A stretch of DNA of 32,845 nucleotides from contig JBHLPH010000020.1 of NCBI GenBank assembly GCA_048939625.1, positions 1 through 32,845 on the forward strand. The letters are read 5' to 3'. Of the stretch, positions 8,267 through 23,154 are shown one piece after another. Each line of letters starts with the position of its first letter. Within the stretch, counting starts at the first letter, position 1. The DNA comes from Promethearchaeota archaeon. GTDB taxonomy: Archaea; Asgardarchaeota; Hermodarchaeia; Hermodarchaeales; Hermodarchaeaceae. Made by a program: the position numbers and the translations under genes. A model generated the notes under the pieces. It was not told the origin of the DNA. It saw only the letters and a list, made by a program, of their open reading frames with translations, and did not search any database.

Positions 8267-10210
8267 TTAGTGGATACTATCATCTATGAGTGTGCCTAGT
8301 TCAAGAAGGCGTAAACCTTGACCTCCACGGACATAGATACGGCTGCTTCCTGTTGGGTCGGAATGGATGAGTGCAAAGATGCGGTATCGTTCCTTGAGAC
8401 TTGGAGGTGGATCGGTGACCCGGAATTTTCCTTCCCCGAGCTTTACTTGTTCACCCCCCTTGGCTTTTTCTTCCTGAAGAACGCCTTGAATGAGTAATGC
8501 AATATTCCAAGTTAATCGGCGGCTACGACAGATGAGGATGCTTCCTTGGAGGAGCACGGTATCTACTCGATCAATGACAGTTAGCCAATCTTGTAAATCA
8601 GGGTGAAGCTTATCCGCTGCTAGACTTTTTTCAGTAAAGTGCTCCAAAGGTGCTTCGGCGGTTTCAGAAAGTTCTGCCTTTAACGCTTCCACAGAGGTTG
8701 TGTCGTGATCAAGTTCTTGCAACCATTTCAGCAAGTTAGAAGAAATCGCTTCAAATTCCTCGTTTCGTTGACGCCCTTCAGCATAATAGACGAGAATCAT
8801 TCGCTGAAGAACAGGTTCCAAGACCTCTGATATTTCAAAGTACTGAATGATTAGAAGCACTTGGTTGAGGAGTTTCCAAGCCTCGTCAAACCGTCGGAGG
8901 GCAAAATAAATTGATGAAAGGTCAATAAGAAACCGAATCACCTCTTCGGGATCGGTAATAGAAGGAAATTCGGTTGAGGTAATTTCCCCACGAATTACTA
9001 AGAGTGCTAGATAGAGAGCTTGAGCTGTGGCCTGCTCATGGACAAATCCCCAGTCCTGGGTTTTACGAGCGAATATTGTAAAATACATCGTCGCGGATTC
9101 AAAATCCTCAAGCAGTAAATTAATCGTGATACGAAGGATATGCGTCATAACCATTAAGCGCTGATAAGTGGATGCATCCGGTCGAACGCTAAGTAAAATT
9201 CTATTGCATTCATCAATGGCTTGTTTTGATTTCTCTAAATCGCCCCGTTCGCCGAGATAGAGATAGCAAAGAGCCATCAGATAATTGATAAGCACTAAAT
9301 CGGGGGCTATTTGGCGTATTAATCTACGATGAGCTGTAGCAGAGAGTTCCCAAGATAGGAGTACAAGGTGATTATAGAGTTCTTGGCGAGCTTCATCAAT
9401 TTCTTTGAGTACTTCTCGATAATTCTGCTCTTGGATTTTATTAACATAGCTTGCATAATTACGTCGAAGCTCTTGGAGAAAATTGAGTAAGCCCAAGGCT
9501 TCTTGATCAGTCATTCCCACAAGATCTTCTTCCGCAATCCTAGGGCCTCTCAGAGAACGGACAACGTGAAAGGCTTGGTTTTCAATAAGCTTGATACGAG
9601 TGGTGGGATCGTACACACTCCGGCGGGTGATACTGTATTTAATCTCGGTATGTAGGACTCGTTCACGAATTTCTTCCAGAAATGCAGTGTCCTCTGAGTT
9701 ATTATAGCTGCGTTCGAGTAGGTGTAGTAGAAAAGCACTTCCCATTAAGCCCTCAATTTCTGGTTCAAGATTTCGGAGAGATTGGAGAAGTTGAAAATCG
9801 GAACTTACTAATCGATTCTCTTTGAGTTTTTTCAAGACTATAAGCAGAGATAAATCTGGGGCTTGAGGAATCCGCTCAACAAAGTCCTTGGCTTTATCTA
9901 TATAGGAAGCTAATTCCTTGGGAGTAACCTCGATTAACTCAACAACTTTTTGAACTTGGCGATGAAGGGGTCCTCTTAGCTCTTCCAGAATTTGAGGGGA
10001 CGTATAAAGCTTAAAGGACACTCGGTCAGCGATTTCCTTGAAACGAAGGAGTGCTTTAGGATTCTGAGCAAATGCGAGAATGAAGAAATTTGCATCTACC
10101 GCAACGCGGGACCACCGCTTTGGTTGAGTACTCGGTGGTGCAGAAGTTTTCAATTTTCGTTTTTTCGAGCTTTTTGACGAGGCCCCACGAGAGGAAGTAG
10201 TTTTTGACAC
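8267..10210 (-). CDS. PIN-domain protein with long alpha-helical (TPR-like) region and beta-rich C-terminal domain
   Basis: PIN acidic motifs VAVDANFF, TSPQILEEL, PDLSLL and LVSSD; amphipathic helical repeats in the middle; Ser/Lys-rich N-tail. Confidence 0.75.
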   Translation of the reverse strand: MSKTTSSRGASSKSSKKRKLKTSAPPSTQPKRWSRVAVDANFFILAFAQNPKALLRFKEIADRVSFKLYTSPQILEELRGPLHRQVQKVVELIEVTPKELASYIDKAKDFVERIPQAPDLSLLIVLKKLKENRLVSSDFQLLQSLRNLEPEIEGLMGSAFLLHLLERSYNNSEDTAFLEEIRERVLHTEIKYSITRRSVYDPTTRIKLIENQAFHVVRSLRGPRIAEEDLVGMTDQEALGLLNFLQELRRNYASYVNKIQEQNYREVLKEIDEARQELYNHLVLLSWELSATAHRRLIRQIAPDLVLINYLMALCYLYLGERGDLEKSKQAIDECNRILLSVRPDASTYQRLMVMTHILRITINLLLEDFESATMYFTIFARKTQDWGFVHEQATAQALYLALLVIRGEITSTEFPSITDPEEVIRFLIDLSSIYFALRRFDEAWKLLNQVLLIIQYFEISEVLEPVLQRMILVYYAEGRQRNEEFEAISSNLLKWLQELDHDTTSVEALKAELSETAEAPLEHFTEKSLAADKLHPDLQDWLTVIDRVDTVLLQGSILICRSRRLTWNIALLIQGVLQEEKAKGGEQVKLGEGKFRVTDPPPSLKERYRIFALIHSDPTGSSRIYVRGGQGLRLLELGTLIDDSIH

Positions 10211-10312: not shown

Positions 10313-10657
10313 ATGGCTGGTCCTTCCCTTTTTGGTGGTATAATGATTGGGGCAGCGGCATGGCTTGAAGTATTTGTCATTTTCTTCGTTGCTCCAGTGA
10401 CTTGGCAGCTAGCAGTAATTCCTGGACTCTTCTTCATTGCAGGACTCTTTCTAGCAGGGACAATCGGGGATGAGGCCCAGTTTTGGGAATTAGCCCTTGG
10501 TGGTATCTGTATTGCTGTTGCAGTAGGGTTTGTTGGATGGTTCTATCTAACCAGTGGTGGAGTTTTACTCATCGCATCACTCATTTCGCTTGGCGCTGGG
10601 GTTCTTATCCTTGTGGGCCTGGTTTTCATCATGGGTGGGCAGAATAAAGGCTACTAG
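10313..10657 (+). CDS. Small 4-TM membrane protein
   Basis: 114 aa with four Gly-rich hydrophobic segments; GGTGA SD upstream. Confidence 0.75.
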   Translation: MAGPSLFGGIMIGAAAWLEVFVIFFVAPVTWQLAVIPGLFFIAGLFLAGTIGDEAQFWELALGGICIAVAVGFVGWFYLTSGGVLLIASLISLGAGVLILVGLVFIMGGQNKGY

Positions 10658-10676: not shown

Positions 10677-12335
10677 TTAATCTGATTCATCTTCCTCAAA
10701 CTGCCTACGTTGTGAAAGTCCATCCTCAAGCGTTGATTCGGTGACTAGCTCATAAAGAATGGCTTGATCTTTCTGTGGTCGAAGAAGCCGACCTAAGCGC
10801 TGAATGAATTCGCGTTTACTCCCGGTTCCAGAAATGATGATGCCAACGGCTGCGTCTGGAACATCGATCCCTTCGTCGAGCACTTGACCCGTTACGATTT
10901 TTGTTAAACCTCCGTCTTTGAATAGTGATAGAATTTTCTCGCGCTCTGACATCTTGGTCCTATGTGTAATCAAAGGGATTCCGAAAGTGTCAGAAATTTT
11001 CTCTACTACCCGTGTATATCGTGAAAAGATGATGACCTTGTCATTTTGATACTGCTGGAGCAGTGTTTCAACGTGGTCGATTTTTCCAGATGCTTCAAGA
11101 GCGACACGACGAGCCTTTTCAAGATTTGATAATGCCTTTCGAGCATCGGGATCAAACACGGTTCGTTTTACGATGGTGTCAAATTGCCAACCAGGATCAA
11201 TATCATCCAGTCGACGTGTATAATTCCGGAAAATCTGCATATAGGAGTTATATCGAGCTTTTTCTTCAGGTTTGAGAGTGATCTGGATTCGTCGGATTTC
11301 ATAGGGGGCAAGATAGCCCTCTTTTTCAAGTAGCCGAGGTGCAACGCGATAAACAGTAGGTCCCACTAGACGGTCGAGGTCATGATGAAGTTCATCATAG
11401 CGTTCCGGAGTTGCGGTCAGCCCCAATCGATATGGGGCTAAGGAGAGTTCAGCAGCTAACCGATAAGTTGTGCTAGGTAGATGATGGACTTCATCAAAAA
11501 TTAATAATCCAAATGATGCCACAAGTTTGGGGGCTAAGAGTGAGGCGGAGTCATAAGTTGCAACAGAAATTGGTTTGAGATCCTTTCTTCCTCCACCCAG
11601 AATTCCAACTTCAGGTACATGGAGCAACAATTCGAGCGCCTCACGCCACTGACTTAGGAGGTCAAGGGTAGGAACGACGATGAGGGTGGTAACCGCTAAT
11701 CGTCGAAGAGCTTCTAGTGCCACAATAGTTTTTCCTCCACCTGTTGGGAGGACAATCACACCTCGTCCCTTCGCACCTTGCCATCGGTGAAGGGCATCTT
11801 CTTGATAGTCCCGAAGAACCATGTCCAATTGGAGCTGGGCTTGTAAATCAGTTGGTAAAATAAATTGAAGCGAGAAGTGAGTGATAACTGGATATCCTTT
11901 ATTTCGTAAATATTTTTGAATTGTGTAAAAGTCCATTATTCGTGCATGGAATAATCTTTCTTTAGCATTATAGGTTAGTATCGGTTTGATTGCCTCTAAC
12001 TCCAGAAATCCCGTTGGTTTTATAATGAGATCACTTTTTCGGAGTCGGAGTTCTGCAAATCGTTCTACACCTTGTTTCTTCAAAATAGCTTTCTGTAAAC
12101 TTGGAGACAGTTCGTAATCTACTTTTGCAAAGAGCTGGTTAAGTTCCTGGAGAGGGAGCTTAGCTGCTTTGGCAAACTGGAGTTTGAATCGAATAGGTCC
12201 CTTGTCTTCATTTGATGTAAGTTTTTCTGCAATCTTACACAGGTTTAATATGGTTTCTTCTTCGGCTTCGAGAACCTCGAAATATGGTGAGCTTTTTCGA
12301 ATAATCTGTGGGATTAGAGAAATCCTCCTTTTCAA
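10677..12335 (-). CDS. xpb: XPB/Rad25-family SF2 DNA helicase
   Basis: LRDYQ, LPTGGGKT, DEVHH, GLTATPER, DEGIDVPDA, QRLGRLLR. Confidence 0.9.
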   Translation of the reverse strand: MKRRISLIPQIIRKSSPYFEVLEAEEETILNLCKIAEKLTSNEDKGPIRFKLQFAKAAKLPLQELNQLFAKVDYELSPSLQKAILKKQGVERFAELRLRKSDLIIKPTGFLELEAIKPILTYNAKERLFHARIMDFYTIQKYLRNKGYPVITHFSLQFILPTDLQAQLQLDMVLRDYQEDALHRWQGAKGRGVIVLPTGGGKTIVALEALRRLAVTTLIVVPTLDLLSQWREALELLLHVPEVGILGGGRKDLKPISVATYDSASLLAPKLVASFGLLIFDEVHHLPSTTYRLAAELSLAPYRLGLTATPERYDELHHDLDRLVGPTVYRVAPRLLEKEGYLAPYEIRRIQITLKPEEKARYNSYMQIFRNYTRRLDDIDPGWQFDTIVKRTVFDPDARKALSNLEKARRVALEASGKIDHVETLLQQYQNDKVIIFSRYTRVVEKISDTFGIPLITHRTKMSEREKILSLFKDGGLTKIVTGQVLDEGIDVPDAAVGIIISGTGSKREFIQRLGRLLRPQKDQAILYELVTESTLEDGLSQRRQFEEDESD

Positions 12336-12476
12336 AGTTCAAATGCGCGTTTCTTAGCCACGTCTTTGTATTGAGTTGGCTTAAAGTGAATCGGCAGATA
12401 GATTTGATTAAGAAAGAAAAGCGTTAAATGCCCTAGTTCCTAGCGAATCCTAGGCTTGACTTTGGGAGGCAGTTGC

Positions 12477-13292
12477 GTGTCATTGGATAAAGAACTCCGA
12501 GAAATTGGAATTCGAACCAGTGAAGCGAAGCAACTTGAAGAAGAGGGAAAAATTAGGGAAGCAGTCGAATTACTAATGCAACTTTCCCAAGAGCTTCGGC
12601 TTCTCGCAGATAAAGCGAACACCTCCTCATTGCGAGGCGTGCTAATGCAACGAAGTCTCGAATACGCTAACAATGCAACCCAGCTAAAGCGGCAATATCT
12701 TGCTGTTGATGCCGAAGAAGGCGCAGATCAAGAAGGTGTTGCAGAGGTTCAAATTCTGCGTGGACCCCAGTTGGCATCTCAGCTGTTGAGAATGTTGCAA
12801 TCAGCCCAATACCGGGTGTTGATTGCAACCCATCAGATACATGATGTTGATTTAGTTGACCCTGAAGCCCAGAAACCCCCATCCAATCTTCTTAGCATGA
12901 TAAAAGAATTGCATGAAGCTGGTGTAAAAATCCGAATTCTTACGACCCCACCAGCCCTCATTGAAGGGGTCGATCGATGGAAGCAAGCTGATGCATTGCA
13001 AAATCTAGCCAGTGCAGGCGTAGAATTCAAACTCTGCTCGCATCTTCATTTCAATGGGATCTTAATCGATGATAGCGGGGTTTGGCGGGGAACCGCCCCT
13101 TTGACTGAAAAGGGATTAGCTGGTTTAGATGACGTCGCAGAGTATTCAACTGCTCAATGGTTGAAGGCAGTATATCTTGACCTGTTTCGTGCCCGTTGGG
13201 AACAAAGTGATTTAACCTGTTCTCAGTGTTTTGAAAAAACCTGTTTATCGAAATTCAAAGCAGAAGATCCGCGGCGAAGCTATGAAGATTAA
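12477..13292 (+). CDS. MIT-domain plus degenerate phospholipase D-fold protein (MITD1-like architecture)
   Basis: N-terminal three-helix pattern EAKQLEEEGKIREAVELL...RSLEYANNATQLK; PLD-fold signatures LQSAQYRVLIA, GVKIRILT, HFNGILIDD and WRGTAPLT. GTG start behind GGGAGG. Confidence 0.75.
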   Translation: MSLDKELREIGIRTSEAKQLEEEGKIREAVELLMQLSQELRLLADKANTSSLRGVLMQRSLEYANNATQLKRQYLAVDAEEGADQEGVAEVQILRGPQLASQLLRMLQSAQYRVLIATHQIHDVDLVDPEAQKPPSNLLSMIKELHEAGVKIRILTTPPALIEGVDRWKQADALQNLASAGVEFKLCSHLHFNGILIDDSGVWRGTAPLTEKGLAGLDDVAEYSTAQWLKAVYLDLFRARWEQSDLTCSQCFEKTCLSKFKAEDPRRSYED

Positions 13293-13297
13293 GCTCT

Positions 13298-13972
13298 TCA
13301 TTCAGGAAAATAGGAGCTCGGATCTACTTCTTCGGTGTTGTATGCGGAAACTACTTTTAAGTACCCCCGACGCTGGGCATGCCGTATTATCTCTTCAACT
13401 TCTTTGGTAGGAATATCGAGCGCCTCGGTGATATCAGCAAGTTGGTGTTTTCCATCTGCCAAGATGATGACAAGAATTGCGTTCATCCCAAAGCGGCGGA
13501 GAAGATCTTGTCGAACTGGTGAATCCTTATGAAGCAGTCGTGGAATAGCTGTAATTCGAACAGGGAGCGGTTCTTTTTGTGGCGTGAATCCCACAATTTT
13601 GTCAACCTCTAATTCAAAATTACGAAGCAGCTCTCTTGCTCTGGGGCTGGTTCGTAGTAAAGAGCTGAGAAGAATCAAGTCATCCTTGAAATATTGAAAG
13701 AAGATGTCTCGGAGCGATTCTAGCAATTTCCCAGTTGTTACGTCCTTTTTGACACAGGCTAAGAATACTAGTCCTTGGTCAACAATGTAACTGAAAGAGA
13801 GATCTTCAAAGGTAATATCTTGGAGTTGGCGCCCCATCATTTCACTTTGGAAGTGTACAAGTGAAGAAAAGAAGCTACTAAATAGGGTTGGGTCAAATTC
13901 GAGGGGTGAATATGCCTTATGGTAGAGGGGAATGCCGCTGGTGTCAATGACCCATACTGCGTGCACTACCAT
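13298..13972 (-). CDS. Longin-like domain plus C-terminal winged helix-turn-helix protein
   Basis: N-terminal VWVIDTSGIPLY...DPTLFSSFFSSLVHF (Asgard longin-like pattern); C-terminal ADGKHQLADITEAL...RRGYLKV. Confidence 0.72.
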   Translation of the reverse strand: MVVHAVWVIDTSGIPLYHKAYSPLEFDPTLFSSFFSSLVHFQSEMMGRQLQDITFEDLSFSYIVDQGLVFLACVKKDVTTGKLLESLRDIFFQYFKDDLILLSSLLRTSPRARELLRNFELEVDKIVGFTPQKEPLPVRITAIPRLLHKDSPVRQDLLRRFGMNAILVIILADGKHQLADITEALDIPTKEVEEIIRHAQRRGYLKVVSAYNTEEVDPSSYFPE

Positions 13973-14073
13973 GCAAAGCACCTTGATATCCGAGCTGTTT
14001 ACTAGAACAGATACATATCTTTAAGCTTGCCCCGACAACCAAATTCCATGTTAAGGATTTTCTTATAGGTATT

Positions 14074-20973: not shown

Positions 20974-23001
20974 CTATTTAACTGGGGGGAGAACATTAGC
21001 GTAACCGTTCATAACTTCTATGCCATTCTGATTAATAACGGTGAAACTCAGACGGAGCAGGTTCTTCTCAGGGACTTTTTCTGTTGCCTCTACCACCGCG
21101 GTAATCTCATCACCAGGATACACTGGTGCTGTGAAATTCACCTTCATGTTATACGCTAGAGTACCTAACCCAGGTAATTTCATCCCAATGACTCGAGCCA
21201 CAAGGGCACCACCCACGGGACCATGAGCAATTCGGCGACCAAACATCGTTGTCGCAGCGTATTCGTCATCCATGTGCAGTGGATTATAATCCCCAGACAT
21301 TTTCGCATACCATTCAATATGTTCAGTTGTAACGCGCATAGAGCCTTCTGCTTTATCGCCCAATTGAATTTCATCTAAGCTCTTCCCCAATGCAAATTTC
21401 GAGCTGACTTCTTGGGGAGATTTCAGTGGAAGTGATGTCTCTTGAAGTGCTTTAGAGAGAATTTGGGGTGTAAATCGAAACATTCGAGCAAATTTCAGGA
21501 GTAGGTCCATGTCATCCGTATCAATTACAACCTTTTTTGTCATCATGGCTTGCATTGCATCCATTTGGCCAAGGAGAATACTTCGCCACGTGCTGGAATC
21601 TGTTTTCAAGGTCATGGTTGGCTTTTTGGTTTTTTTCTGTTCGATACTACATTGTTGATCCTGAATTGATAGTAACCAGGGACTTTCATCGGAAAACAGA
21701 AATTGAATCTTGGCGGAGACCCCCTGGGCGCGGTCAGGGCGAAAACCATTGGGGATAGCAGACATGAATGTGTCAAAGGTCAGTGATTCGATTTCAGGTA
21801 AAGCCGCTTCCTGAGCTTTTTCGCGTTTTTGCTCAATGAATACTTCACGTTGAATCAGAAACCGCATTATCTCTGATGTTCCACCACCAACGGTTCCTAA
21901 CCTTGCATCTCGATAGTATTGTTCGAGAGGAAAATAATCCTTGACATAGCCAGCGCCTCCACATATTTGCATGGCAAGGTCACAAACTTCAACCGCGGCT
22001 TCAGTAGCATGTAGTTTTGCCATTGTCGCCTCTTTCGTACAAGGAAGCCCCTTATCGATCAATCTACCCGCAGAGACGGTTAGGAGCCGTGACGCTCGCA
22101 TCTTCAATGCCATGTCTGCTATCTTGAATGAAATGCCTTCAAATCGGGAGATAGGTTGGTCAAATTGGATGCGTTCTTGGGAGTATTCTATTGCGATTTT
22201 AAAGGGCGTCCTCATACATCCAAGTGCTTCAGCAGCAATCCCCACACGTTCCGAATCCAATTCATCCATTAGGATTAGAAAGCCTTGATTGATCTTCCCA
22301 AGCAGATTGTCTTTGGGAAGTTTCATGTTGTTAAATTTGATATGAGAAACAAAGACCCCTTCCCGTCCCATTAGGGTGAAGTCCCGTTCTACTGAAAAGC
22401 CCTTCCATTTTGTTTCAACAATGAAAGCAGACATACCGCTTTTACTGTCAACAGTTGGGTCAGTTATGGCAAAGACAACGATTTGATCGGCAATGCTGCC
22501 ATTGGTGATGTAGCGTTTCTCTCCGTTAAGAATCCAGCATTGATCTTTTTCGTTCCATTCCACCTTTGTCTCCATGCCTGCAGTGTCGCTACCTACAGCC
22601 GGTTCTGTGATAGCCAGAGCTCCGATTTTTCCCCCTTTCGCTAATGGAACTAGATACTTTTGCTTTTGTTCCTCGGTCCCAAATCGGAGAATCGGAATGG
22701 CACTCAGAGTGCAGCTAGCCCCGAACATCATTGTGGCGGAAGGAGAGACCACAGAAAGTTCTTCGCCAGCAATTAGTTGGTGCATAAACGGCTTATCGGA
22801 TCCACCGTACTCCTTAGGAATCAACAGTCCAGATAAACCAGCATCAGCAAGTTTCTTGAAGAACATTCGGTAATCGTACTCTCGCGCTTCAATTTGTGTG
22901 CGTATAGGTTTGATTTCCTGTTCAACAAACTCGCGAATCTGCTTGCGAAACGCTAATTCATCCGAAGTATAAAGGAGAGTATCATCGTTGATTTGGGTCA
23001 T
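20974..23001 (-). CDS. Acyl-CoA dehydrogenase - SCP2 lipid-carrier - MaoC (R)-hydratase fusion
   Basis: ACAD: LAITEPAVGSD, GEKRYITNG, QICGGAGY, GGGTSEIMR. SCP2-like middle: FRPDRAQG...DAMQAMMTKKVVI. MaoC: SGDYNPLHMD, IAHG, FTAPVYPGD. Confidence 0.9.
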   Translation of the reverse strand: MTQINDDTLLYTSDELAFRKQIREFVEQEIKPIRTQIEAREYDYRMFFKKLADAGLSGLLIPKEYGGSDKPFMHQLIAGEELSVVSPSATMMFGASCTLSAIPILRFGTEEQKQKYLVPLAKGGKIGALAITEPAVGSDTAGMETKVEWNEKDQCWILNGEKRYITNGSIADQIVVFAITDPTVDSKSGMSAFIVETKWKGFSVERDFTLMGREGVFVSHIKFNNMKLPKDNLLGKINQGFLILMDELDSERVGIAAEALGCMRTPFKIAIEYSQERIQFDQPISRFEGISFKIADMALKMRASRLLTVSAGRLIDKGLPCTKEATMAKLHATEAAVEVCDLAMQICGGAGYVKDYFPLEQYYRDARLGTVGGGTSEIMRFLIQREVFIEQKREKAQEAALPEIESLTFDTFMSAIPNGFRPDRAQGVSAKIQFLFSDESPWLLSIQDQQCSIEQKKTKKPTMTLKTDSSTWRSILLGQMDAMQAMMTKKVVIDTDDMDLLLKFARMFRFTPQILSKALQETSLPLKSPQEVSSKFALGKSLDEIQLGDKAEGSMRVTTEHIEWYAKMSGDYNPLHMDDEYAATTMFGRRIAHGPVGGALVARVIGMKLPGLGTLAYNMKVNFTAPVYPGDEITAVVEATEKVPEKNLLRLSFTVINQNGIEVMNGYANVLPPVK

Positions 23002-23154
23002 GACGGAGTTTCCCACCTGTTATGATAGGGAAAGAAGGGTAATCTTTAGGATTAATCTTGTTCCATGAATTTTGTTTAAGTGATACGAATAAGAGTAAGT
23101 AACATATGGAGCATCCCTGATGTCTAAAATTATCGATTTACAACAGGAAGATGT

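Follow-up and report, generated by a model that had tools for sequence, protein, structure and literature searches.

The window (32,845 nucleotides; positions 1 to 32,845 of contig JBHLPH010000020.1, forward strand, in GenBank assembly GCA_048939625.1) belongs to a Promethearchaeota archaeon, which in turn is placed by GTDB in the family Hermodarchaeaceae. The subject of this report is one gene on its forward strand, at 12477-13292, whose product (P0001) carries an N-terminal MIT domain, a short acidic linker, a single phospholipase D (PLD) fold with a degenerate catalytic site, and a cysteine-containing tail. In MITD1, the MIT domain binds ESCRT-III, a part of the endosomal sorting complexes that are required for transport (ESCRT), and the PLD-like domain binds membrane (PMC9477494, PMC11962514). 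An earlier reading of the same DNA, made from the sequence alone (the original prediction), had noted this likeness and had proposed either a counterpart of MITD1 in archaea or a fusion that arose independently, acting as an ESCRT accessory factor. The gene and its close orthologs are referred to below as the HxN clade, after the Asn that replaces the Lys of the catalytic HKD motif, and the members of the wider family that keep this motif as HKD-intact relatives.

The open reading frame (ORF) spans 12456-13292(+). Its true start is the GTG at 12477, which gives one gene of 271 codons plus stop; homologs start with MSLDKEL at the position equivalent to this GTG, and a Shine-Dalgarno-like GGGAGG precedes it by 7 nucleotides (nt), so that 12477 is preferred over the TTG at 12456. 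The latter was rejected as a start because the homologs begin at the GTG equivalent and GGGAGG would fall within the longer ORF. Gene and start were thus placed correctly in the original prediction, and the motifs that it quoted (the MIT pattern, HFNGILID, GTAP and CxxCxxxxC) are all found where it had put them. The MIT pattern residues are A17-x3-E21-x2-G24-x3-E28-A29, E61-Y62 and A67..L70-K71. An AlphaFold model built from 26 sequences (pLDDT, i.e., predicted local distance difference test, 87.8) shows three N-terminal helices followed by an alpha/beta PLD fold; the linker between them differs in sequence and length between homologs. The features of the gene are summarized in Table 1, together with loci elsewhere that are discussed below.

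Table 1. Features of the MIT-PLD gene (window coordinates) and related loci outside the window.
Feature	Position	Strand	Evidence or remark
Whole gene, MIT + crippled PLD + Cys tail	12477..13292	+	ORF, homolog starts, ~50 full-length homologs
TATA-like TTAAAT	12424..12429	+	~50 nt upstream of GTG, in 141-nt divergent intergenic region shared with xpb; candidate promoter element
Shine-Dalgarno-like GGGAGG	12464..12469	+	7 nt before GTG; read from sequence
MIT-type three-helix bundle, residues 1-78	12477..12710	+	Model, VIA, hhalign, family profile
Acidic linker AEEGADQEG, residues 79-87	12711..12737	+	pLDDT <50 at residues 81-87
Single Nuc-type PLD-fold domain, residues 88-243	12738..13205	+	Pfam PLDc_2 E 3.2e-10; NucT Z 18.3, Nuc Z 18.1
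C187, candidate fourth Cys4 ligand	13035..13037	+	Invariant in 26/26 family members; putative metal ligand
Degenerate HxKxxxxD = HFNGILID, residues 191-198	13047..13070	+	H191, N193, D198 invariant in clade
Degenerate GSxN = GTAP, residues 205-208	13089..13100	+	Relatives read GSAN, GSVN or GSSN
CxxCxxxxC tail, CSQCFEKTC, residues 248-256 (C248, C251, C256)	13218..13244	+	Common to HKD-intact Asgard relatives
Clade-specific C-terminal peptide KFKAEDPRR	13251..13277	+	E263, D264, R266 invariant; pLDDT 39-58
P0072 paralog	Contig C9:59259-59807 of the same genome = L019:6227-7165	-	Outside window
ESCRT cluster without Vps4	L008 = contig C56:1-12000 of the same genome		184-residue winged-helix protein, two Snf7 genes, opposite-strand 500-residue PH + Vps23-core protein
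DUF2070 + MIT-PLD loci, another Asgard family	L018:6066-8762, L020:4074-6941, L014:1298-3949		Gaps 6-15 nt in two, ~100 nt in third

The protein begins with a genuine MIT domain, which is homologous to the MIT domain of the lineage's own Vps4. Pfam MIT (PF04212) remains below threshold on the protein (12.3 bits vs. a cut-off of 30, E 0.19), although the match covers profile positions 9-65 of 66, and reaches E<=1 in just 4 of 16 clade members; the assignment therefore needs structural and profile evidence, and it rests on four independent lines, namely fold matches, profile matches to Vps4 and to the HKD-intact relatives, a relative above the Pfam cut-off, and a joint-profile match to VPS4B. 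The model places helices at residues 3-22, 26-46 and 50-78 or beyond (the third is modelled to 83), with pLDDT 85-94. In an unbiased VIA structure search of 48,161 representative chains, about 12 of the approximately 27 matches to residues 1-80 were MIT domains (Z 9.0-11.4, root mean square deviation (rmsd) 1.5-2.8 over 70-79 residues). The best was Calpain-7 (Z 11.4, rmsd 1.5 over 74 residues), and others were katanin p60 (11.1), MITD1 (10.5; 73/73 residues, rmsd 1.9), Sulfolobus Vps4 (10.3), yeast Vps4 (10.1), NRBF2, chitin synthase, SKD1, ULK3, VPS4A and LIP5; the non-MIT matches interleaved with these were TPR-like and designed bundles only. (Note that Z values of 9-11 alone are common for helical bundles, whereas such an enrichment of MIT domains among 48,161 chains is not.)

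Regarding profile comparisons, the N-terminal profile of the HxN clade aligned by hhalign with the Vps4 MIT domain of a congener (E 1.7e-4, 61 columns without gaps over residues 12-72) and with the MIT-bearing N-termini of the HKD-intact relatives (E 2.4e-4). The joint N-terminal profile of the family found the MIT domains of VPS4B (E 1.4e-6), Calpain-7 (6.5e-6), yeast Vps4 (about 1e-4; 4.6e-5) and MITD1 (4a5x, 1.9e-3) among PDB sequences; searches of the same sequences with the single protein or a profile of the clade alone returned coiled-coil and TPR noise only (bicaudal D, LpoA; E 0.005-0.04). HKD-intact relatives that carry an MIT domain reach or approach the Pfam cut-off, and the full-length relative P0071 exceeds it (35.9 bits vs. 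30, E 8e-9) and also matches the Vps4 MIT domain by BLAST (E 1e-4).

The second domain is recognized by Pfam PLDc_2 (PF13091) with 40.4 bits, against a cut-off of 27. Residues 88-261 are structurally closest to the single-HKD nucleases NucT (Z 18.3, rmsd 2.2, 143 residues aligned), Nuc (18.1) and Zucchini (16.7) in the VIA search, with rmsd 2.2-2.6 over 139-146 aligned residues for the top matches of this kind; FAM83B (Z 15.9), SauUSI (15.1) and TrmBL2 (13.4-13.9) appeared further down. The MITD1 PLD chains 2ymb and 4a5z are not among the best 50 entries listed in either of two VIA runs (last row Z 12.1 in one of them), although 2ymb_D ranked near the top in Foldseek; this absence is no proof that the folds differ. 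The family profile agrees in matching HKD enzymes (bacterial PLD E 7.5e-12, Zucchini 2.7e-10, Nuc 2.3e-8, PLD3 7e-8); it reaches MITD1 through the MIT part only, the match to TrmBL2 is insignificant (E 0.36-0.47) and FAM83 is not matched.

The complete motif HxK(x)4D(x)6GSxN is replaced in the protein by HFNGILID and GTAP. In characterized enzymes of the PLD family, the motif Lys and Asn contact the phosphate and their loss usually abolishes activity; single-HKD PLDs work as dimers that share one active site. Among 16 diverse members of the HxN clade, C187, H191, N193, D198, W203, R204, G205, A207, C248, C251, C256 and E263-D264-x-R266 are invariant and P208 is found in 14 of the 16, so that the altered pocket (HFN..L.D and WRGTAPL) is under strong constraint across the clade. 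The three cysteines of the tail probably form a Cys4 metal site with C187, to judge from their conservation. The KFKxEDPRR end is absent from the HKD-intact relatives, which stop soon after the Cys motif, and is likely to be a disordered docking motif, as its modelled confidence suggests.

A search of 5.8 billion proteins yielded about 50 full-length homologs with 52-94% identity, all of them from Asgard metagenome-assembled genomes (MAGs) labelled Thorarchaeota, Promethearchaeota or Hodarchaeota. In a set of 400 Asgard genomes, close orthologs (E<=1e-140) are confined to the GTDB family of the window, where 17 of 18 genomes have one; the protein family as a whole occurs in 30 of the 400, essentially from two GTDB families. 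A word-indexed profile search returned the same clade only; exhaustive phmmer gave 13 representatives in all, the distant ones from MAGs labelled Thor-, Loki-, Hel- and Heimdall-. Members of the wider family other than the HxN clade all read HxK...GS[AVS]N. Common to all are the PLD core and a Cys four residues before the His, and a CxxCxxxxC end is usual. A full-length, HKD-intact and MIT-bearing group, to which P0071 belongs, is present in all six genomes (6/6) of another GTDB family. The family is restricted to Asgard archaea, and some of its HKD-intact members have a Pfam-significant MIT domain.

The genome of the window also encodes an HKD-intact paralog, P0072, of 312 residues (HIK...GSAN) with the same CxxCxxxxC tail, whose N-terminus is basic, helical and weakly MIT-like (hhalign E 0.01) and is followed by a long acidic linker. 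At least 14 of the family's genomes show a comparable second match (E 1e-17 to 1e-26, in ORFs of approximately 300-345 residues). In a maximum likelihood tree of the PLD and tail region, the HxN proteins form one clade (support 100/99) on a stem of 1.19 substitutions per site; this clade is placed among the intact relatives, its exact sister not being resolved by the tree, and P0001 and P0072 lie far apart. The changes from Lys to Asn and from GSxN to GTAP thus arose once, in one GTDB family, out of a former enzyme family. The HxN clade also acquired the KFKxEDPRR end, and its PLD part turned acidic. Fast change on the long stem gave way to strong purifying selection on the altered pocket, the MIT domain and KFKxEDPRR, the selection being indicated by the invariant columns and by the presence of the gene in nearly all genomes of its GTDB family.

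Two Snf7/ESCRT-III genes are present in the genome, on a contig other than that of the MIT-PLD gene (Table 1). One of the encoded proteins has an invariant tail, TxLPxP...LExEIxxLKE, which we take to resemble the MIT-interacting motifs MIM2 and MIM1. Vps4 was not found in the assembly, which is 87.6% complete; its two single-AAA ORFs are PAN and a 413-residue ATPase without an MIT domain. (The latter, at L023:1267-2508(+) on contig C65, has an N-terminal domain of approximately 170 residues that is not MIT, and is neither PAN nor a canonical Vps4.) Congeners have a Vps4 of 385-387 residues, and in one of them (G094) the Vps4 gene (385 residues) adjoins two ESCRT-II-like winged-helix genes on another contig (L024). 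A complex prediction for MIT residues 1-85 with the ESCRT-III tail 150-203, run without controls, scored 0.01 against a mark of 0.32 and counts neither way. A look-up of RNA data for 11800-13900 of the window listed none.

In the window, the order of genes is pheST, bax1 (DUF790), a 647-residue gene, a small opposite-strand gene and xpb, followed by the MIT-PLD gene on the other strand; downstream and convergent with it are a gene with longin-like and winged helix-turn-helix (wHTH) parts, a class II aminoacyl-tRNA synthetase (Asp/Lys/Asn type) and a Ras-family GTPase. The core order of xpb, MIT-PLD, longin-wHTH, class II synthetase and Ras genes is kept at 52-57% protein identity, and the flanks change. 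The 647-residue gene (8267-10210(-)) has no Pfam match and, with the small gene, separates bax1 from xpb; one relative keeps it (L009/L010, 646 residues), but in another (L012) it does not lie between bax1 and xpb. The small gene (114 residues, 10313-10657(+)) is kept in both of these relatives. The 227-residue protein encoded at 13298-13981(-) has a C-terminal wHTH (HTH_47, E 3e-5) and a longin- or roadblock-looking N-terminus; its gene is convergent with the MIT-PLD gene, the stops lying 5 nt apart, and a counterpart of 221-225 residues is syntenic in all relatives examined. Further along, domains of the acyl-CoA dehydrogenase, SCP2 and MaoC dehydratase types are joined in a single ORF (20974-23016(-)).

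The surroundings of the HKD-intact relatives are of other kinds. The gene of the closest one, P0054 (L013:1-14771, a metagenome contig from the Joint Genome Institute), has an RPA-like OB-fold gene immediately upstream and PCNA and Hjc in its vicinity; many very small ORFs surround it, and the region resembles a mobile element or a virus. The MIT-positive HKD-intact gene always follows, on the same strand, a gene for a DUF2070 multi-pass membrane protein (three loci), an arrangement that suggests an operon; the DUF2070 gene of the window's own genome (C36:7174-8991) is not beside a PLD gene. DrmC and DpdK, both of them nuclease modules, are matched by intact relatives at E 1e-8 to 1e-10. Membership of a defence system was considered and rejected: the PADLOC matches of P0001 are weak (MkoC 9e-5, MkoB 4e-4), the intact relatives hit generic PLD-nuclease modules, and defence neighbours were not seen at the loci examined. 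The context gives no single functional answer.

The explanation to which we assign an even chance is that the protein is a catalytically crippled offshoot of an Asgard MIT-PLD enzyme family, that it has converged with MITD1, and that its MIT domain probably recruits it to ESCRT-III. With the phosphate-binding Lys and Asn gone, normal PLD phosphoryl transfer would be lost, and the PLD module would take the role of a dimeric scaffold or of a module for ligand binding, as in other PLD pseudoenzymes (the MITD1 C-terminal domain, FAM83, the TrmB effector domain). The MIT domain would dock on the conserved C-terminal MIM-like tails of the organism's two ESCRT-III proteins and thereby place the PLD module and the C-terminal peptide on ESCRT-III polymers where membrane remodelling or division takes place. 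The protein would thus work in the way of MITD1 without being its ortholog. The role of ESCRT accessory factor that the original prediction proposed is a reasonable one to infer from the MIT domain. Several observations weigh against this explanation. The Pfam match of the MIT domain is sub-threshold, as noted above, and not every MIT domain binds ESCRT-III, NRBF2 being an example; the analysis yielded no evidence for ESCRT-III binding by the protein. The PLD domain with its tail is net acidic (charge -5, isoelectric point (pI) 5.6, vs. pI 8.7-8.8 in the intact relatives), so that binding of anionic membranes or DNA in the manner of MITD1 or Nuc is not favoured. The nucleophile His191 and D198 are kept and invariant, and residual or altered chemistry may be possible. 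The gene lies outside the ESCRT cluster, divergent from xpb and in a block with bax1 whose arrangement is kept, a setting that suggests DNA transactions as much as membranes.

The layout is indeed that of MITD1, as the original prediction stated on the basis of an MIT bundle and a degenerate PLD fold, both of which were recovered in the model and in the searches: Foldseek aligned the whole model with full-length MITD1 (2ymb_D) at E 4.6e-8 over 257 columns (E 3.7e-6 with a first, weaker model). However, Nuc, Zucchini and TrmBL2 score like 2ymb_D in Foldseek, and the MITD1 PLD domain alone (4a5z_A) gave E 3.8e-3 with the first model. Pfam MIT_C (PF16565) gave no match on the protein at E<=10 with hmmscan, and a six-frame search of the genome and of a congener with the same profile found nothing at E<=10. 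The protein is most likely a fusion convergent with MITD1, with a MITD1-like layout, and not its ortholog, because its PLD domain groups with HKD nucleases, its Asgard ancestors are intact, MIT_C is unmatched, its MIT domain is nearer to that of Vps4 and its distribution is narrow. Of the two options in the original prediction, the independent fusion is accordingly favoured and the MITD1 counterpart is not, the PLD domain sitting with Nuc, NucT, Zucchini and PLD3; nesting with Nuc-type families, which that prediction had named as the outcome that would reduce the likeness to analogy, is what was found (VIA Z 16-18, no MIT_C, relatives with intact HxK...GSxN). True homology, by which MITD1 would descend from an Asgard MIT-PLD fusion and MIT_C would be a further-diverged form of the same PLD domain, is improbable. 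It draws on the identical order and sizes of the domains, the loss of HKD catalysis in both, the Foldseek alignment over the full length of MITD1, the confinement of the MIT-PLD family to Asgard archaea, and the fact that eukaryotic MITD1 makes up the three ESM-Atlas feature clusters that lie nearest (0.85-0.86, below the 0.9 line and a lead only). The failure of PF16565 to match in either genome speaks against it, as does the family profile, whose matches to Nuc, Zucchini, PLD3 and bacterial PLD lie at E 1e-8 to 1e-12 and which reaches MITD1 via the MIT domain only. Moreover, the ancestral Asgard state is an intact HKD motif that was lost late and in a single family, the family is confined to 30 of 400 Asgard genomes, the MIT domain is nearer to the Vps4 MIT than to the MITD1 MIT, and a shape search of the Atlas gave bacterial PLDc_2 proteins, not MITD1.

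Two other explanations are each unlikely, though somewhat less so than descent of MITD1 from this family. The protein may still be an enzyme or the subunit of one, i.e., an altered phosphodiesterase or nuclease, or the partner of P0072 in a heterodimer with an asymmetric or regulated site. The invariant H191 and D198 and the constraint on the whole pocket would fit, as would the intact paralog with the same Cys tail in the genome, the comparable second match seen across 14 or more of the family's genomes, and the resemblance of the intact relatives to DrmC and DpdK; yet loss of the motif Lys and Asn is generally known to abolish PLD activity in most cases, and the two paralogs are distant in the tree. 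Alternatively, the protein may be an accessory of XPB-Bax1 in DNA repair or at the chromosome, with an MIT-like bundle that binds a partner other than ESCRT and a dead PLD domain that binds DNA or protein. Its divergent adjacency to xpb, with bax1 nearby and the core order kept down to 52% identity, is in favour of this, together with the place of P0054 beside the RPA-like gene, PCNA and Hjc and the nuclease-type branch of the PLD domain. The synteny, however, covers the whole block including the tRNA synthetases and may be no more than historical, genes in divergent orientation do not share a transcript, the coupling of the intact MIT-PLD gene in the other family is to a DUF2070 membrane protein instead, a PLD domain as acidic as this one does not suit DNA binding, and the MIT domain is specifically like that of Vps4. 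A broader and highly speculative proposal, no more probable than homology with MITD1, is that recruitment of effectors besides Vps4 to ESCRT-III through MIT domains already existed in Asgard archaea: MIT-tethered PLD nucleases and their crippled derivative would act at ESCRT-III scission or division sites (e.g., clearing or sensing DNA), with MITD1 as the surviving Asgard-derived descendant and a eukaryotic signature protein.

In eukaryotes an MIT 'code' recruits varied effectors to ESCRT-III, among them Vps4, spastin, AMSH, USP8, calpain-7, ULK3 and MITD1. To our knowledge, archaeal MIT domains have been known essentially only as the N-terminus of Vps4/CdvC. If the MIT domain described here recruits its protein to ESCRT-III, the joining of a Vps4-like MIT domain to another effector fold in Asgard archaea would mean that MIT-based recruitment of effectors predates eukaryotes or arose in parallel. 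The Asgard MIT-PLD family would also be a simple, testable archaeal model for MITD1-like function. The presence of an intact and a crippled paralog in one genome offers, in addition, a clean natural example of how pseudoenzymes evolve in the PLD superfamily. No paper joining 'MITD1' and 'Asgard' was found in the literature searched. In the part of its text that was available, a 2024 ESCRT survey (PMC10936438) mentions no phospholipase or PLD domain; 'PLD' occurs there once, in a context outside that part.

Among known systems, the protein has the layout of human MITD1 (PDB 4a5x, 4a5z, 2ymb), with an N-terminal MIT domain, a short linker and one non-catalytic PLD-fold domain in approximately 250-270 residues. 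It differs from MITD1 in that its PLD domain matches PLDc_2 and not MIT_C and keeps the nucleophile His and the Asp, in its CxxCxxxxC tail, KFKxEDPRR end and acidic PLD part, and in its descent from an HKD-intact Asgard family; furthermore, binding of ESCRT-III and membrane is known for MITD1 and is putative for the archaeal protein. With Nuc (Salmonella), NucT (Helicobacter) and Zucchini it shares the single PLD domain per chain, and in structure residues 88-261 match these best, but in it the motif Lys is replaced by Asn and the motif Asn by Pro, and an MIT domain and the Cys tail are added. The MIT domains of archaeal and eukaryotic Vps4/CdvC are homologous three-helix bundles; there they precede an AAA+ ATPase, whereas here the MIT domain is fused to a PLD fold and falls below the Pfam threshold. 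The DUF1669 domain of FAM83 and the effector domain of TrmB/TrmBL2 are likewise PLD folds without a complete HKD site that serve as scaffold or binding module, but their partner domains differ and the catalytic losses are independent.

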